From IMG/VR virus record IMGVR_UViG_3300001866_000283, positions 1 to 30,497 of that record: 30,497 nt of DNA. The stretch is one strand, 5' to 3'. This DNA comes from a virus (Duplodnaviria; Caudoviricetes). The position numbers and the translations under genes were made by a program. Below the pieces are notes generated by a model. That model was not told the origin of the DNA and ran no database searches. It saw only the letters and a list, made by a program, of their open reading frames with translations. Below are positions 9,663-27,046 of this stretch, piece by piece (position 1 is the stretch's first letter; each line of letters begins with the position of its first letter).

Positions 9663-10286
9663 TCACTCTGGATAGATTTCTCCCTGGCCTTTCACGGTTA
9701 GCGTCTGCTTCTGCGCGTCGCTGGCCGATGCCAAGATGTTCTCTATGCCCTGTAGAGTGCCTATGCCGATTGCGAAAGCTGTAATGCTATCTACGCTGTA
9801 GAACTTCCAGAGGCCGGATAATTTCAGATCGGCCAACGGTACGCCGCCGTCATAGTAGAAAGTGCCTGCTGAGAACTCCCAGCTTCCAGCACCCATGATG
9901 GATGAGCCCCATCCGGCATCATCGCAGCTTGTGGTGTCGATCTCTTTTCCACCGATCTTCAGCTTGCCGTCGAACAGGCCAATCACCTTCTGAAAGTTGG
10001 CCTCAGATCGTCTCGCTCCGGTGACTGTGACTGCGCTTCCAGATTTCGACGTCTCGAAGGTCACTGAACCACGGAGGTAGTTCACGGCGAATCCTGTAGT
10101 GACGGCAGTTCCATCTACCTTCACTGTTAGGGCCATATCCTCATCCCAATAGCGAGAACCGGGCGCAGCCTGGAATGTGAGGTGATCCCCAGAATCCGAG
10201 AGCGCCAGGTTCGTGAATGCGACGGAGACCGCGTCGGGATCATCCCTATAGAGAGCGGCAGATAGGCCGCTCACTGCTGATGTCAT
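9663..10286 (-). CDS. Tail tube protein paralog with an inserted Ig-like/beta-rich segment
   Basis: Shares KIxGKEIDT...DDAGWGSSIMGAGSWE with 10296..10721 and carries an extra N-proximal beta-rich segment (LTVKVDGTAVTTGFAVNYLRGSVTF). Confidence 0.7.
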   Translation of the reverse strand: MTSAVSGLSAALYRDDPDAVSVAFTNLALSDSGDHLTFQAAPGSRYWDEDMALTVKVDGTAVTTGFAVNYLRGSVTFETSKSGSAVTVTGARRSEANFQKVIGLFDGKLKIGGKEIDTTSCDDAGWGSSIMGAGSWEFSAGTFYYDGGVPLADLKLSGLWKFYSVDSITAFAIGIGTLQGIENILASASDAQKQTLTVKGQGEIYPE

Positions 10287-10295
10287 AGATCAGCC

Positions 10296-10721
10296 TCAGG
10301 TTAGCTCTGTCACAGCGCCGCTGCCCTTAAGGGTCAGATCGAGGCTCTGCTGAGCGCTTGCGCTAGCGAGCTGATAGTTGCCGCTTGTGACATGCACGGC
10401 TCCAGAGAAACCCTTTGGGCTAACGGTGGGAGTCCCTGATTGCAGGGCCTTGACATAAATAGCAGATCTTGCGAGTAAGGCAGCCTTGATAAGTCCGTAT
10501 GCAGAATCAGATAGGATCAGGTTGCTTTTCACGGTTACCTCCCAGCTACCAGCACCCATGATGGATGAGCCCCATCCGGCGTCATCGACGTTGGATGTAT
10601 CGATTTCTTTGCCATCGATCTTGATCTTGGCGTCGGAGACCTCGGCCAACTTTACGAATGTGCCGTTACTAGTGGCGCATACCCACAGTGTTCCGGACAT
10701 GCCGGAAGTTGCATTAGTCAT
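10296..10721 (-). CDS. Major tail tube protein (TP901-1-like)
   Basis: 141 aa with an IDTSNVDDAGW...GAGSWEVTV motif and C-terminal LTLKGSGAVT, typical of siphovirus tail tubes; positional context agrees. Confidence 0.8.
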   Translation of the reverse strand: MTNATSGMSGTLWVCATSNGTFVKLAEVSDAKIKIDGKEIDTSNVDDAGWGSSIMGAGSWEVTVKSNLILSDSAYGLIKAALLARSAIYVKALQSGTPTVSPKGFSGAVHVTSGNYQLASASAQQSLDLTLKGSGAVTELT

Positions 10722-12878: not shown

Positions 12879-13096
12879 TGGTCGCTCAGGGCTTTGGTGC
12901 AGGAGTCTAGCTTGCCATTGGTCTCAGCGAGCTTGGTTTGAAGTTCCTGGTTCTTGCGGTTTGTCTCGGCCAAAGCAGTGCGTGTAGCTCTTAGCTCTGC
13001 CTGGAGTGCAGCATTGGACTTCCCGCCCTGATATAGCTGATATGCCAGCCAGACGAACGCAGCAGCCATGACGAGGAGGGCAATGATGTACCACAT
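12875..13096 (-). CDS. Single-TM coiled-coil protein
   Basis: MWYIIALLVMAAAFVWLAY followed by a heptad-like region containing LAETN twice. Confidence 0.7.
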   Translation of the reverse strand: MWYIIALLVMAAAFVWLAYQLYQGGKSNAALQAELRATRTALAETNRKNQELQTKLAETNGKLDSCTKALSDQ

Positions 13097-13390
13097 CTAG
13101 CTCACCTTCTCTTCAGGCTTCGTTGCCTCGGCCAGGCTGGATTTCATACAGAGGATAGTCTTGAATGTTGGCGAAAAGTCCCCGATGTCCGTCCAAATTT
13201 CCTGTGCTTTTGCTCGCAGCTCCGGCACCTGGTAGGCGCGGGCCACGAAATCAGCAACGTCGCTGATCAGCTCTTTTGCGGCATTCCATCGAGCCGAGCC
13301 TTTCTGTATTCCGATCCCTGCAGCCACTATCGCAAGCAGACTGCCGCCTATTTCAGCTAATTGTGTGACATCTATATCCATACAAAACAC
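13097..13390 (-). CDS. Holin-like small membrane protein
   Basis: ~95 aa; one TM helix (IGGSLLAIVAAGIGI) followed by amphipathic helices. The function is inferred only. Confidence 0.45.
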   Translation of the reverse strand: MFCMDIDVTQLAEIGGSLLAIVAAGIGIQKGSARWNAAKELISDVADFVARAYQVPELRAKAQEIWTDIGDFSPTFKTILCMKSSLAEATKPEEKVS

Positions 13391-20421: not shown

Positions 20422-21930
20422 TTACAGAACGTATGGCCGGACCATTGGCTTAGTTGAGAATGTGAGCGTAATCGTCTCTTTGGGCCTGTTTAGTATGCCA
20501 GACACTATCATCTCTATGGAGTCTGGACCGTCATCGAAATCAGCATTGGGAAATGATTTGAACATGTATAGTAGCTTCTTGTATTTCCGTCCCCAGTCGG
20601 AGCGGAAACAGAGCTGCCCGTTATTGTAGTGTGGCAGGAGAGACCGGATCCTGTTCTCCTTGTTGGCCGTGTTCCAGAACATCTCATAGGGCACTACAAG
20701 GCTCTCTTCCTTCTGTCTCTGGCGAAGGAGAATCTCAAATGTGCTTCTGTCGCCTCTCTTCCAGGCATCTTTTGCGATTCCCATGGAATTGGCCTCTATG
20801 CGGAAGAGTTCGTACTTGAACAGCTCATGCTTTTCCAAGATCTTTTCCAGGGATTTCTCTTGGGTCTCGACTGTCAGGTCGCAGTCCCAGACGAGCCAGC
20901 GGTTGTCAGGCAGTATGGCGATCGTACTGATTGCCGCAAAATCATGCCCGCCTTCGCTGGGATCGAGGGCACCGTAAAACTTGCATTGGTCCAGATCGAC
21001 CGTCGCCGGGTCCACGAGCTTCAGGCCGTCGAGGCTAAACATGCTGTATTTGCTGTCTGGAGGCCTCTGCTGCCACATGGCTTCCCATTCGTATGGTCCG
21101 ACCATCGCCTCTTTCTTTCGAAGGGCGACAACATCATATTTCCAGGGCCAAAGCGCGTCACCGGGCTTTCTAGGGTCGTATGGTGGAATGGGGGCTTCTG
21201 CAATCGCTGGAAGGTTGAGTACAGTCCATTGCTCAGCTTCCAGGTCCTCTTCGCCTCTCTTGAGGAGCCTGCCAGCCAGGTCGTCACTGTGCCACCTGGT
21301 GAGGATGATAAGCATCCTGGCTTTCTTTTCTGATCGGGTATAGAAGGTCGAGACGAACCAGTCCCAGGCATTGTCTCTGTATGTCAGGGATTCGGCCTGA
21401 GCCCGATCTTTTACCGGATCATCGATTATGCCTATATCATAGCCCATGCCGGTTATTGCACCGTTGACTCCGGCGCAGACATAGACGCCTCGATGGCCCA
21501 CTATCTCGAAGATGTCATTATTCCTGAGATAATTGCCCTGGGCTGTCGTGCGGATGTTCTTCTCGCTCAGGTTCGTGTTGGGGAAGACGTCCTTGTAGGC
21601 TGGACTGATTATAATCCTCTGGACATCTCGGTTCATCCTGGATGCCAAGTCAGCACCGTAGCTGGTCCCGATAACCTGCAGGTTGGGATCCCGCCCAAAC
21701 GCATATGCAGGAAACATCCTGGAGCCGATCTCAGACTTTCCGGCCCTGGGATGGGTGAATATCATCAGGTTCGAGATCTTCCCGGAGAGAAGATTATCCA
21801 GGTGCTCACAGATGAGGCGGTGATGCCAGTTGATATTATAGTCAGGTCGAAGGTACTGATAGAAATCAATCAGGTGGCGTCTGGCTTTCTCTTGCCGTAT
21901 TTCCTTCAAGCTTGGCGGCCAGAGCCTCAA
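20422..21930 (-). CDS. terL: Terminase large subunit
   Basis: Walker A-like HPRAGKS, Walker B IGIIDDPVK, coupling motif ILTRWH.DDLAGRL, and RNase H-like nuclease acidic motifs ALDPS and DDGPDS. Confidence 0.95.
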   Translation of the reverse strand: MRLWPPSLKEIRQEKARRHLIDFYQYLRPDYNINWHHRLICEHLDNLLSGKISNLMIFTHPRAGKSEIGSRMFPAYAFGRDPNLQVIGTSYGADLASRMNRDVQRIIISPAYKDVFPNTNLSEKNIRTTAQGNYLRNNDIFEIVGHRGVYVCAGVNGAITGMGYDIGIIDDPVKDRAQAESLTYRDNAWDWFVSTFYTRSEKKARMLIILTRWHSDDLAGRLLKRGEEDLEAEQWTVLNLPAIAEAPIPPYDPRKPGDALWPWKYDVVALRKKEAMVGPYEWEAMWQQRPPDSKYSMFSLDGLKLVDPATVDLDQCKFYGALDPSEGGHDFAAISTIAILPDNRWLVWDCDLTVETQEKSLEKILEKHELFKYELFRIEANSMGIAKDAWKRGDRSTFEILLRQRQKEESLVVPYEMFWNTANKENRIRSLLPHYNNGQLCFRSDWGRKYKKLLYMFKSFPNADFDDGPDSIEMIVSGILNRPKETITLTFSTKPMVRPYVL

Positions 21931-23318: not shown

Positions 23319-23503
23319 GCTTTGGACTCCATCTTGGCTATACGCCCTTCCCAGAGCTTGATGTTCTTCCGGCAGATCTTGATGTTGTTCTCCATGCGCT
23401 TGAGAGCCAGTTCGTGAGCAGCAAGCATTTCCTTGAAGTAGACCAAGTGGCCCAGGGCCTCTTGTTTCTCAGCTTCACGCTTTTTATTCATGCAGGCCTC
23501 CAT
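23315..23503 (-). CDS. Small coiled-coil hypothetical protein
   Basis: 62 aa; overlapping stop/start coupling with its neighbours. Confidence 0.55.
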   Translation of the reverse strand: MEACMNKKREAEKQEALGHLVYFKEMLAAHELALKRMENNIKICRKNIKLWEGRIAKMESKA

Positions 23504-24035
23504 GGATCTCTATATTCACCGGCTCACCGATGTGGCTTCTGTAGTACTCCTCTTTCTCCGGAGGCCAAGCTGCCCGGATGGTAGTCCAGAGCTGGCCGGA
23601 GGTGAGGAGAAGCAGAACCAGGAACTCCTGGCCCGCTGGCAGAGGGAAGTTGCCGGGCTTACCGGCGAACTTGGTATCCCATTCCAGGAACTCAGGTGAG
23701 AGCTGAGCCCGCCTGACCTTCAGAACGCCGAGGAGCATTGTCTCAGAGATTCTGGCCGTGACTTCCAGTGGCATCTTGGCGTATTCGGCAGAAAACTTGA
23801 TAGTGCACCGGCCCGAGGGATCTTCCTGGAGCTGGGCGTCTTTGGCCATTGCCTGGGCGATCTTGCGCTCCAGAACTTCTCTGAGCCGCGGGTTCGCGTC
23901 GGCCCGGACCAGGCCGTCCGGGTATACCTTAGCCGCGCCTCTCGGGTGGAATATCTCCGCGGATCCGTCCGGGTTTACTGTGCAGTCGAAGCCTTCCTCG
24001 GCTGCATAGTCCTGAGCGACTTGGGCGGGATTCAT
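23484..24035 (-). CDS. Hypothetical protein
   Basis: 183-aa ORF, ATGA-coupled to 24032..24544. Confidence 0.7.
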   Translation of the reverse strand: MNPAQVAQDYAAEEGFDCTVNPDGSAEIFHPRGAAKVYPDGLVRADANPRLREVLERKIAQAMAKDAQLQEDPSGRCTIKFSAEYAKMPLEVTARISETMLLGVLKVRRAQLSPEFLEWDTKFAGKPGNFPLPAGQEFLVLLLLTSGQLWTTIRAAWPPEKEEYYRSHIGEPVNIEIHGGLHE

Positions 24036-24544
24036 GCCTCTGCCCTCATGGCTCTTGGTTTGGTTTTTCTAACCTTCTGACGAACTTCTCCGATTGCTTC
24101 AATGACTGGCTGGAACTCCATGTAGGCATTGTATGTTTCTTGCCAGCTATCGAGCTCATCCAGTGCTTTCTCAAGAACCTGCCTTCGCATCTCGGGGTTG
24201 TTCATTGCCTCAATAATGCCAACATAAGCAGCACCTTTTTGCTCCGGAGGGACTACATGAACAAAAGCCCGGATTGGCCTCTTTGCATCTGTGGTATCTG
24301 TCCGTACAATGACGACGGATCTCAGTATATGCCCAGCCTGCTCCAGTCGATATTGCTCGGCGGCTACAGAATCTTCCCACTCGAAAATATTGTGGTGAGG
24401 GGCATCGATTCTACGTCCATCCTCCAACACATCCCATGCCGTGGGGTGCTTGTCCTGAGAAGACAATTCGAGTATTCTGTTAGCCACGGCTTGCGGATCG
24501 GCTCTATTGGCCCAAGGAAAGCCCTTTTTCCAAGCATACTCCAT
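24032..24544 (-). CDS. Putative accessory protein of the RAMP/array module
   Basis: 170 aa; starts 1 nt after the stop of the RAMP-like gene; conserved-looking HNIFEWEDSVAAEQYRLEQA motif; helical C-terminus. Confidence 0.7.
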   Translation of the reverse strand: MEYAWKKGFPWANRADPQAVANRILELSSQDKHPTAWDVLEDGRRIDAPHHNIFEWEDSVAAEQYRLEQAGHILRSVVIVRTDTTDAKRPIRAFVHVVPPEQKGAAYVGIIEAMNNPEMRRQVLEKALDELDSWQETYNAYMEFQPVIEAIGEVRQKVRKTKPRAMRAEA

Positions 24545-25171
24545 CTATGCCACACCCCCTGTCTCGATTTGCTTTGAGGTATCTACTTCGAAGCATCCGT
24601 ATGTTCCCGACAGAACTTTAGGGGCTGATGGCCGCCATTCTCCAATGCCAACCATTCCGGCAGCATTAACGAGCGAAATTATGTCCTCGACCTTGAGGAT
24701 ATTAGCATTGAAAGTGATTGAGAGGGTTGCAGACCATTCAGGAAACTCGGCCCGATATCTGAGATCGGCCACGCCTGTTTCTAAGCGAACTGGATCTTCT
24801 CTCATGTGGTGTTCGCCCTCGATTCGCACCAAGTAGCCGTTGACTCTGATGATGGTTTTTGCTAGAGTCATTGGCAGGCCGTCAAACATTCGGCAGGCTC
24901 CGACAATCGCTGCCTTAAACCCCGGTGCGGGAAAACCCGGCTTGCCATCCGGCATTAGGTACAATGACGCCTTGTAGTCGGCTTCCGGATCTTTGGGCTC
25001 CTTTTTAGCCTTCGGGGCATTCTTCCCTGCCATTTGCTTTTCAAGCATCTGGCGTTTGGCTTTGGCGCTCCAGTTATGTACTATGAGAGGCGTTATGCCT
25101 TTGATCGGAACCTTTACAGTTTCCAGTTTTAAGGACTGGATTGTTACTACTTTATCTCCACCTTTTGGCAT
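24545..25171 (-). CDS. Stand-alone RAMP/Cas7-like RNA-binding protein
   Basis: 208 aa with RAMP-style motifs in order: first strand IKGITPLIVH, P-x-x-x-F-K helix (FPAPGFKAAI), R-x-EF strand (RYRAEFPEW), and a C-terminal Gly-rich loop plus strand (GMVGIGEWRP...GTYGCFEV). GGAGG SD at 25181-25185. No other cas genes in the window. Confidence 0.75.
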   Translation of the reverse strand: MPKGGDKVVTIQSLKLETVKVPIKGITPLIVHNWSAKAKRQMLEKQMAGKNAPKAKKEPKDPEADYKASLYLMPDGKPGFPAPGFKAAIVGACRMFDGLPMTLAKTIIRVNGYLVRIEGEHHMREDPVRLETGVADLRYRAEFPEWSATLSITFNANILKVEDIISLVNAAGMVGIGEWRPSAPKVLSGTYGCFEVDTSKQIETGGVA

Positions 25172-25199
25172 TGTTAATTTCCTCCGCGAATTTTATTAC

Positions 25200-25517
25200 G
25201 AGACTGGCGCAACAAGGCGCAGCGAGACCGGACTTAACTTGACATGACTGGCATGTCCTGACGGAACCAGGCTTGACCCGACGCAAGGGGACATGACTCG
25301 ACTGGCCTGCCGGGACTTAGCCTGACGAAACCCGACCTGACTCGACAGAGCCCGACTGGCTTGCCAGGACCGGACGCAGCAGGACCTAGCAAGGCAGAAC
25401 GCAACTCGACTTGACTCGACTGGCAGGACTTGGCCCAACTCGACATAGCTCGGGGCGACATGACAGGGCTTGACATGACTGGACTGGCCTGACAGAACTC
25501 GACTAGCAAGACAAAAC
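25200..25517 (-). ncRNA. Array of GYY-NN pentamers in units delimited by GCCA (putative guide RNA array)
   Basis: On the minus strand, GCCAGTC recurs (+ strand gactggc at 25202, 25246, 25300, 25354, 25418, 25482) with spacings 44, 54, 54, 64, 64. Between delimiters lie 8, 10, 10, 12, 12 in-register pentamers; 47 of 52 begin GYY and 29 begin GTC. The repeat structure is directly seen; its being an RNA is inferred. Confidence 0.8.
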
Positions 25518-25558
25518 GATGCACCTGACTCTTCCAGGATTTTCGTGATGGGTGCATC
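25518..25558 (-). other. Inverted repeat/hairpin at the 5' end of the array
   Basis: GATGCACC (25518-25525) and GGTGCATC (25551-25558) form a perfect 8-bp stem directly abutting the first pentamer. Confidence 0.5.
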
Positions 25559-25569
25559 CAAAGTATCGG

Positions 25570-25953
25570 TCAAGCAGCCTCCGCTTTCGCCTTTGGTGCT
25601 GCTTTGTTCAACCTGACCAATCGCAACAATGCGTCTTTTTCGTTCTTGGCCCAAACGAAGTACGTCGTGCCCTCGTGCGTGCCTTCCTGGATGCCTTCTG
25701 TGGCGGCAGGCGGCCAGGTGAGGCTGACTGTTGCCGGTAGTTGCGGCTCTCCTCCGATGATCTCGACCAGGATCTGGTAGGGCTGCAGGCCGGCTTCGAT
25801 CTGCTCTCGATATGGGTCTGTTTCCCGGCTGATGATCTCCGCACCAGGATCGAGCTGCCTGACGATGGCCAGGGTTTTCTTCAGCAGGAGGACATCCGTG
25901 TATGGTCCTGCCCAGTCGTCCCCCAGTTCCGTGGCAATTGCGTACATCTTCAT
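25570..25953 (-). CDS. Hypothetical protein whose C-terminal motif matches array unit 2
   Basis: Track ORF 25570..25986; the likely start is MKMYAIATE after a GGTGGAG SD. The C-terminus contains EKDALLRLVRLN. Confidence 0.75.
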   Translation of the reverse strand: MKMYAIATELGDDWAGPYTDVLLLKKTLAIVRQLDPGAEIISRETDPYREQIEAGLQPYQILVEIIGGEPQLPATVSLTWPPAATEGIQEGTHEGTTYFVWAKNEKDALLRLVRLNKAAPKAKAEAA

Positions 25954-25994
25954 CTTTGATACTCCACCAAACTTGATTTGAATCAACTGCGTTT

Positions 25995-26250
25995 CCTTGA
26001 CATCTTGTCAAGGTGCTCTTCTCTCTCTGGGACCCCCGGAACCCCCGGACTATCCCCCTGGACAAAGACACGATACACTAACCTTGACAAACTGTCAATA
26101 TGATACAGTAGACCTGATTTATCTTCTAAGGCAATTTATCTCTAGGATAATCCCTCCTGGGAAAATCGCCCCGTCTCGGCTCCACTTGGAGCTTCATGGG
26201 AGCACCTTGACAAACTGTCAAGGTCGTCGTTTTCTTGACAAGATGTCAAT
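25995..26250. promoter_or_regulatory. Four TTGACA-N3-TGTCAA palindromes around an AT-rich core (origin iterons or operators)
   Basis: Copies begin at 25997, 26084, 26207 and 26235 in a non-coding gap; AT-rich stretch at ~26096-26150. Confidence 0.75.
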
Positions 26251-26272
26251 ATGAAACAGCGGGCCTTGTGCA

Positions 26273-27046
26273 TCACTTTCTTGGCTCCTTGCTGTTGACC
26301 TTACAGAGCCATGCTTTTCTTCTGGCCCCGCGTTTCTCAAATTTGGCTTGATCGGGATGAGAATTCGCTACCCAGCGCATTGCTCTCAGGGCTTGCTTGG
26401 GATCGATGGTCTTGCCCTCGGCCTCGCCTATGATTCTGGATGCCTCAAGAGTCGAGATGGGTTTGGCATTCCTGCTTAGGGTGGCAAGCAGGACCTCGGC
26501 CCTGTAACGGTCCGATTTCGTGAAGGTCAGCAGAGGCCGGCCTATGATGAACTGGACAATATCTTTCTCAAGGTCTGCCATCTGGCGAAGTGCATTGAGG
26601 GGCGAGGCTTGGCCTAGGTCTTTAGCCCGGCTGATCGCCTTGGACTGCTTTTTGCATCTGACATAGAGGCTCCTCGCCTCCGGACTGTCCGGCAGCTTTT
26701 CCAGCATTTCCAGGCTATTTTCGAGGTTGTCTATCTCGACATGAAACAGCGTATCGAATCCGTCCTGCAGGCGCTCCTGGGCTTCTTCCAGGCGCTTGTT
26801 TTTCTCTTTGAGTTCGTCCATCTCGGAGTTGTCTGTCGCAGAATGAGGCGTTTGCCTCTGTTCCAGCGTTCTCTCAAGTTCCTGTATGTACTGGAGCTGT
26901 CTCTCGATTAGCTCGTCCTGGGAGCTGATCCGCCCCTCCAGCTTCTCGATTGTTTTCCTGAGTTGTGAGGGCTCGCTGCTGCAGAGGTCTGCAGCTGTCC
27001 GGAAGGCCAGAATATCCTGTGATGCAAGAGGGGTGGCATTGGCCAT
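26273..27046 (-). CDS. Coiled-coil protein with C-terminal winged-helix-like domain (possible initiator/regulator)
   Basis: N-terminal heptad-rich region; C-terminal VLLATLSRNAKPISTLEASRII...KQALRAMRWVA...AKFEKRG..RKAWL resembles a wHTH; adjacent to the palindromes. Confidence 0.6.
   Translation of the reverse strand: MANATPLASQDILAFRTAADLCSSEPSQLRKTIEKLEGRISSQDELIERQLQYIQELERTLEQRQTPHSATDNSEMDELKEKNKRLEEAQERLQDGFDTLFHVEIDNLENSLEMLEKLPDSPEARSLYVRCKKQSKAISRAKDLGQASPLNALRQMADLEKDIVQFIIGRPLLTFTKSDRYRAEVLLATLSRNAKPISTLEASRIIGEAEGKTIDPKQALRAMRWVANSHPDQAKFEKRGARRKAWLCKVNSKEPRK

Follow-up and report, generated by a model that had tools for sequence, protein, structure and literature searches.

VIPR are viral RNA-guided systems that were described in 2026 (10.64898/2026.04.26.720920). 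In the passages available of that report, staggered arrays, archaeal viruses and the repeats NNNGG, YNNNG and NNNNG are already published. The available part of a second report describes 21 non-canonical clusters, including GAC/NN, CAC/NN, WGT/NN and TGH/NN (10.64898/2026.10.21.760802), and an anti-satellite function of VIPR in E. coli appears in the available part of a third (10.64898/2026.10.15.759431). According to the structural passages available for SUSP1, a type II system (PDB entry 36pp), residues R138, D177, W178 and R179 of its Vipr protein contact G1, G2 and Y3 of the scaffold, and the position-2 G is gripped by Arg and Trp (10.64898/2026.04.26.720927).

We analyzed a window of 30,497 nt, i.e., the whole stretch of DNA presented here. 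Its IMG/VR record is a provirus, 38% complete, with tailed-virus genes. The window very probably contains a VIPR cassette, carried by a provirus whose host is likely a methanogen-type archaeon; the cassette would silence genes of competing viruses and satellite-like elements by RNA guides. The minimal locus consists of vipr and a vap-like partner, is proviral and has no CRISPR array. Its features, together with the neighboring gene orfU, are as follows:

24032 to 24544, minus strand: vap-like partner gene, 170 aa, phrog_15946
24545 to 25171, minus strand: vipr, 208 aa, RAMP/Cas7 fold, phrog_4652
25204 to 25488, minus strand: staggered array with six GCCAG junctions, at 25488, 25424, 25360, 25306, 25252 and 25208
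25209 to 25248, minus strand: U5, 8 pentamers
25253 to 25302, minus strand: U4, 10 pentamers, matching the EIPAxKCPRI motif of terminase large subunits
25307 to 25356, minus strand: U3, 10 pentamers
25361 to 25420, minus strand: U2, 12 pentamers, matching the 3' end of orfU in sister viruses
25425 to 25484, minus strand: U1, 12 pentamers
25489 to 25571, minus strand: leader, similar to that of the closest relative (locus L001), and degenerate first unit U0 (approximately 25489-25530)
25570 to 25953, minus strand: orfU, 127 aa, just outside the cassette, with its own U2 site at 25606-25641

The staggered VIPR (10.64898/2026.04.26.720920, Fig. S18) resembles this locus, as far as its available passages go, in having a Vipr RAMP with one accessory gene, a viral setting, 9-16 pentamers and a 1-nt overlap, as well as in skipping one base at the wobble position, targeting competing elements and sparing its own genome. 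However, its scaffold is GGY, whereas here it is GYY, mostly GTC, and the junction is GCCAG here compared to GGCAG in most relatives. Type II SUSP1 has a homologous protein, in which the thumb Arg and the G-loop [DE]WR are kept, and also targets satellite-like elements. Unlike SUSP1, to which sequence similarity is local only and whose units are separated by a structured tail of about 40 nt, the units here abut with a 1-nt overlap, the predicted targets are a terminase and orfU rather than a recombinase, and the host is likely archaeal. The GGY scaffold of type II systems (SUSP1, P. fulva) was not found here, with G2 present in 2 of 52 pentamers. The non-canonical clusters likewise have a period of five, a core other than GGY and a neighboring protein with a Vipr-like fold; the available passages of that report (10.64898/2026.10.21.760802) mention neither targets nor junctions nor hosts. 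As the reverse complement of GTC/NN, GAC/NN may represent the same kind of array. Compared to Class 1 CRISPR-Cas, whose Cas7/Csm3 RAMPs have the same fold, the locus has no repeat-spacer array and no cas operon among the ORFs scanned, and its code is gapped, not contiguous.

As a pattern, the array fits the published YNNNG alternative. GYY as a word has 0 occurrences in 10.64898/2026.10.15.759431 and is unnamed in the available passages of the other VIPR papers, but such a scaffold may already stand in published VIPR figures. A reading made earlier from the sequence alone (hereafter, the sequence-only reading) had considered the locus a divergent variant. This holds in that the position-2 G is mostly missing; however, novelty was overstated, as staggered junctions and non-GGY repeats were already published. 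The locus belongs to the VIPR family and has a variant scaffold, and the decoded targets are the main addition.

The five units and pentamers that had been laid out in the sequence-only reading were all recovered when the sequence was parsed again. The minus-strand array contains 52 pentamers (12, 12, 10, 10 and 8 in U1-U5, or 13, 13, 11, 11 and 9 including the junction), with no indel within U1-U5. Position 1 is G in 50 of them; position 2 is T in 37, C in 12, G in 2 and A in 1; and position 3 is a pyrimidine in all 52 (C in 38 and T in 14). The complete GYY trinucleotide is present in 47/52 pentamers. Positions 4-5 are variable, with 13 of 16 dinucleotides used. The longest GYY-NN run was 11, whereas shuffles gave 5 at most (2000 array shuffles and 50 whole-window shuffles).

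GCCA had been proposed as a delimiter. It does occur between units, but it is not new: it is the published 1-nt staggered junction, which is GGCA in most relatives. GCCA occurs seven times within 25488-25205, and one of these copies is internal to U1 (25434-25431); therefore, the true junction is GCCAG, a final pentamer whose G doubles as base 1 of the next unit. The same 1-nt overlap was observed in most relatives, mostly spelled GGCAG. The distance between array and gene, previously given as about 30 nt, is 37 nt from the end of U5 and 33 nt from the last GCCA to the vipr ATG. At the position of U0, L001 has an intact 9-pentamer unit after a similar leader, and U0 is probably a decayed unit. 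None of U1-U5 folded clearly better than shuffles, and an Rfam scan of 23500-26500 yielded one chance match and nothing else.

Two ORFs (25196-26071 and 25234-25557) cross the array, which would fit a repeat that is protein-coding, or acts at the DNA level, and is unrelated to the RAMP gene. The probability of this is negligible in our view, given that the pentamer phase shifts at each junction, that the equivalent region of a related locus (L014) contains 8, 9 and 6 stops in the three sense frames, that similarity of the ORFs to relatives is patchy, and that the NN pairs can be read as codons belonging to other genes.

The 208-aa protein, previously suggested to be RAMP/Cas7-like and to resemble VIPR, had a single sequence match in PDB, the SUSP1 Vipr. 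The matched region extends from the thumb to the G-loop (E 7e-4 for the single sequence and 2e-8 for a 120-sequence profile). Structure searches revealed a Cas7/Csm3 fold: top Foldseek matches of the AlphaFold model (pLDDT 89.7) were type VII Cas7 and Csm complexes, and VIA-align superposed it on a type III-A Csm subunit over 153 residues (Z 11.1, rmsd 3.8), both structure libraries being older than the Vipr PDB entry. Both suggestions were thus borne out. Residues R140, E178, W179 and R180 align with SUSP1 R138, D177, W178 and R179, and H32 may be the counterpart of SUSP1 H17. At least 1027 vipr homologs were found. Pfam and NCBIfam gave no match for vipr, partner or orfU, and the Atlas returned hypothetical viral clusters only.

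The adjacent gene, which had been noted as a partner, belongs to a family present in 89 of 99 vipr loci of at least 4 kb. Its structure model is confident, and its three structure matches are all uncharacterised viral proteins. No PDB match to the fold was detected at E<=0.001 (best Z 6.3, helical hairpin only); this does not establish a new fold. Conserved residues of the partner are H51, W56, R66, Q69, R75 and E143, and no nuclease family or fold was matched, suggesting a non-nuclease helper. The sequence-only reading also implied that homologs should have adjacent 5-nt-periodic arrays. Such a signal, called when above the shuffle maximum, was present in 89 of 97 vipr loci (at least 4 kb) vs. 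0 of 75 terminase control loci. No CRISPR array was detected in the 30,497-nt window, nor any cas family among the 18-20 window ORFs scanned.

Upstream of the cassette, orfU had no family match. The palindrome TTGACA-N3-TGTCAA occurs four times upstream of the orfU-VIPR operon (25997-26011, 26084-26098, 26207-26221 and 26235-26249), and four similar copies are present in the sister virus L125. These palindromes are likely repressor operators.

Targets were searched with the one-base-skip code of 10.64898/2026.04.26.720920, in which NN pairs are compared with codon positions 1-2. U2 first matched L001 at 20 of 24 letters, in the gene upstream of the L001 array. In five loci fetched by orfU homology, it matched 22, 22, 20, 20 and 19 of 24, in frame. 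Over all loci, the best matches were in L125 and L126 (22/24 in both), with 21/24 in L226, compared to 18/24 for the virus's own orfU copy. The target sites decode as EKDALLRLARLN, the skipped base being codon position 3. The score was 22/24 with a skip of 1 and 16/24 with a skip of 0 or 2, and the shuffle maximum was 19 (200 shuffles). A set of 74 loci fetched by terminase homology, without orfU selection, served as a blind repeat. Here, the best U2 match was 21/24, in the orfU homolog of L226 (shuffle maximum 19, 60 shuffles), and that of L001 guide 1 was 18/22, equal to its shuffle maximum; the two sites overlap in this one orfU homolog. When G-U pairs were allowed, U2 reached 23/24 with three sisters, and U4 paired fully with G009. 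Taking the fixed G for G2 would give another register, which was ruled out, as both variable bases match target codon positions 1-2.

U4 matched 19 of 20 letters in G009, G013 and G014, and 12 of 20 in the virus's own terL. A pattern made from the core common to U4 and L001 guide 7 retrieved 19 loci, including 7 terminase large subunits. The tenth dinucleotide, which was omitted from the pattern, was matched in 7/7 terminases vs. 2/12 others, the seven terminase matches sharing one conserved motif and thus not being independent. A shuffle p-value for U4 would be circular here, since the U4 pattern had served to pick the loci. L001 guide 3 was unused in the selection; it matched the G009 terminase at 18/18 (shuffle maximum 16) and G012 at 17/18. 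In addition, a guide common to L002 and L014 matched primase genes of G010 (16/18) and G013 (17/18). At the level of sequence matching, these two guides are independent support for the predicted targets.

For U1, the best related match was 19/24 (shuffle p ~0.045) in the G011 gene immediately before terL, likely the terminase small subunit. Two collection scans with U1 gave 10 and 11 matches, none extending convincingly, G011 alone being related and none being better. A pattern scan with U3 gave four matches, including one of 19/20 in a contig unrelated as far as tested, and U3 has no supported target. No target of U5, a 16-letter guide, was found within the fetched loci. No window guide had a perfect match (best 22/24 and 19/20). 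No guide, whether of the window or of a relative, matched its own genome at 80%. Two further matches exceeded the shuffles, U2 in L178 (20/24, outside any open frame) and L001 guide 4 in L134 (19/22, off-frame in a tape-measure gene), and look like chance. Among matches at E<0.1, 33 had a skip of 1, one a skip of 0 and none a skip of 2, in a set enriched by the skip-1 pattern; the fairer comparison of skips is the one given above for U2. Every supported target site lies in a coding gene, in its sense orientation. The proposed role of NN as a specificity code agrees with these in silico results for two of the five units (U2 and U4) and for the L001 guides, which match targets with a 1-nt skip. 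Judged by these matches, U2 and U4 carry NN pairs that fit orfU and terminase genes belonging to other elements and appear to spare the virus's own copies.

The targeted elements G009 and G010 (15 kb; also labeled L174 and L175) encode an integrase, a primase, a small terminase and a split large terminase, and G013 (17 kb; L178) encodes a primase, a small terminase and a split large terminase. No capsid or portal match was found in these three, and the window's own capsid is likewise without a PHROG match. G011, by contrast, is a full virus. By their size and the missing capsid and portal matches, G009, G010 and G013 are possible archaeal satellites targeted by several arrays, or their records may be fragments. 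A literature search for Methanothrix virus satellites with terminase gave 0 results.

By analogy with SUSP1, the array would be transcribed ahead of vipr, with the upstream operon, and the transcript would be cut at GCCAG junctions into guides of approximately 45-65 nt. One Vipr would bind each pentamer, with GYY flipped out, and the resulting filament would bind double-stranded DNA without a PAM and block transcription. Silencing of a rival's terminase would stop its packaging, and silencing of orfU would be expected to affect the downstream operon. The guides are in mRNA sense; therefore, DNA is the expected substrate. Instead of blocking transcription, the complex could target RNA, or the partner could cut DNA. 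All sites being sense, strand does not discriminate, and the partner has a set of six conserved residues (listed above) and no known fold. However, guides that share the mRNA sense cannot pair with mRNA, the SUSP1 VIPR triplex needs DNA according to the passages available (10.64898/2026.04.26.720927), and the partner had no nuclease match. We consider RNA targeting or DNA cutting improbable.

Variation of the scaffold was assessed among 114 proteins from loci, 74 of which had at least 20 parsed pentamers and were used to define scaffold classes. Position 2 was G-majority (>=0.6) in 56 loci, intermediate in 10 and pyrimidine-majority in 8, and the G2 fraction was a continuum from 0 to 1. Staggered junctions were the rule in the clade, mostly GGCA, with GCCA dominant only in the window and L001. 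The vipr tree included 61 of the 74 loci, 13 near-copies being left out. Its 7 GYY rows require three changes, forced by supported branches, with L077 on a long branch. All 8 GYY loci retain H32, R140, E178, W179 and R180, and the GYY and GGY loci are not distinguished by any single column of the alignment. The L001 Vipr is 86% identical to that of the window; the two arrays have the same scaffold and almost wholly different NN content. These observations suggest that GYY most likely arose by repeated drift, which a tolerant pocket in the Vipr proteins of this lineage would have allowed, and is not a new code. In SUSP1, perturbing GGY abolished silencing, with GGY>GAY among the listed constructs (10.64898/2026.04.26.720920), so that tolerance of a position-2 pyrimidine is a tentative proposal.

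Alternatively, the Vipr of this clade could have switched specificity, preferring GYY and GCCAG and ignoring GGY, which would yield a private code closed to orphan guides of rivals. The window and L001 share a G2 fraction of 4%, are alone in having mostly GCCA junctions and have Pro at thumb residue 127 instead of the Met, Thr, Val or Tyr of GGY loci; hijack by orphan guides is also documented, in the available part of 10.64898/2026.10.15.759431. However, R140 and W179, whose SUSP1 counterparts grip G2, are kept in 8/8 GYY loci, the other six GYY loci have Met127, the G2 fraction is continuous with no column dividing the two groups, and no orphan array was found among the sister and target records scanned. 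We regard such a switch as unlikely. A broader form of this proposal is an orthogonal VIPR: a methanogen-virus lineage would have rewritten both scaffold (GGY to GYY) and junction (GGCAG to GCCAG), and its private code, immune to canonical orphan guides, would be aimed at packaging genes of an undescribed family of archaeal satellites with terminases, and also at its own cassette-less sisters. This, too, seems doubtful to us.

The scaffold could also have drifted once function was lost. A decaying VIPR would be consistent with the degenerate first unit, the 5/52 off-consensus trinucleotides and the absence of a perfect target. Yet the vipr and partner frames are intact with all key residues present, the five units have no indel, L001 has kept the scaffold while nearly all of its NN pairs differ, and GYY-majority arrays require three changes on the tree. 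Decay is therefore very unlikely.

Several relatives showed additional features. L002, L014, L015 and L017 form a second clade, in which units are rich in GTC, junctions read GGCAG and TATA-like sequence lies upstream; the array of L017 is pure GTC. Two cultured actinophages, Mycobacterium phage Brocalys (L094) and Gordonia phage UmaThurman (L095), encode a Vipr of 46-48% identity and a partner of the same family, next to staggered GGY arrays, and would serve well as GGY controls; the annotated start of Brocalys gp45 overlaps the end of the array. On the minus strand of L221 (~12900-13200), an apparent second, SUSP1-like vipr 3' end is followed by a single 10-pentamer GGY guide. This candidate adjoins a gene for a tyrosine recombinase, its element also encodes a split terminase, and it was missed by tblastn with the window protein.

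The virus had been considered probably archaeal. In support of this, ANMV-1 was the only match of the window capsid among phage records (33%), and integrases of a sister virus (G003, 38%) and of target element G010 (49%) were closest to that of a Methanosarcina acetivorans plasmid. Because of these capsid and integrase matches, the host is likely a methanogen-type archaeon. An identical copy of the window is present within a 188-kb contig (L096), in which a gene for a 799-aa DNA methyltransferase-like protein lies past the window end (583-2982). Within the window, a 97-nt repeat of 85% identity (9876-9972 and 10539-10635) lies in two adjacent genes, one of them encoding a major tail protein; the two genes are probable paralogs.

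Sister viruses provided information on the distribution of the cassette. The alignment of L125 to the window breaks off at the orfU stop and resumes at 24046; other genes occupy the interval, i.e., ~25571-24047 of the window is replaced. vipr was absent from all five orfU-bearing sister records, one of which is complete, and two contigs of one sequencing run join across the cassette site (low depth, 85% threshold). None of the four contig sets compared, all probably DNA, covers the array, which has no bearing on its expression. These comparisons indicate that the VIPR cassette is a module, absent or replaced in sister viruses. Compared with 20422-21930 of the window, the orfU-sharing sisters L125, L126, L130 and L137 have differing terminase and head modules, with a 96% identical terminase in L125 and other lineages elsewhere, consistent with mosaic genomes.

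In this study, the VIPR code, with decoded natural targets, is extended to a scaffold without G2, even though the gripping residues are kept. This raises the question of whether the G2 pocket is tolerant or whether orthogonal Vipr/guide pairs exist that would be usable in parallel. The analysis nominates orfU and the 15-17 kb terminase-bearing elements for study, and points to virus-virus and virus-satellite conflict in methanogen-type archaea.
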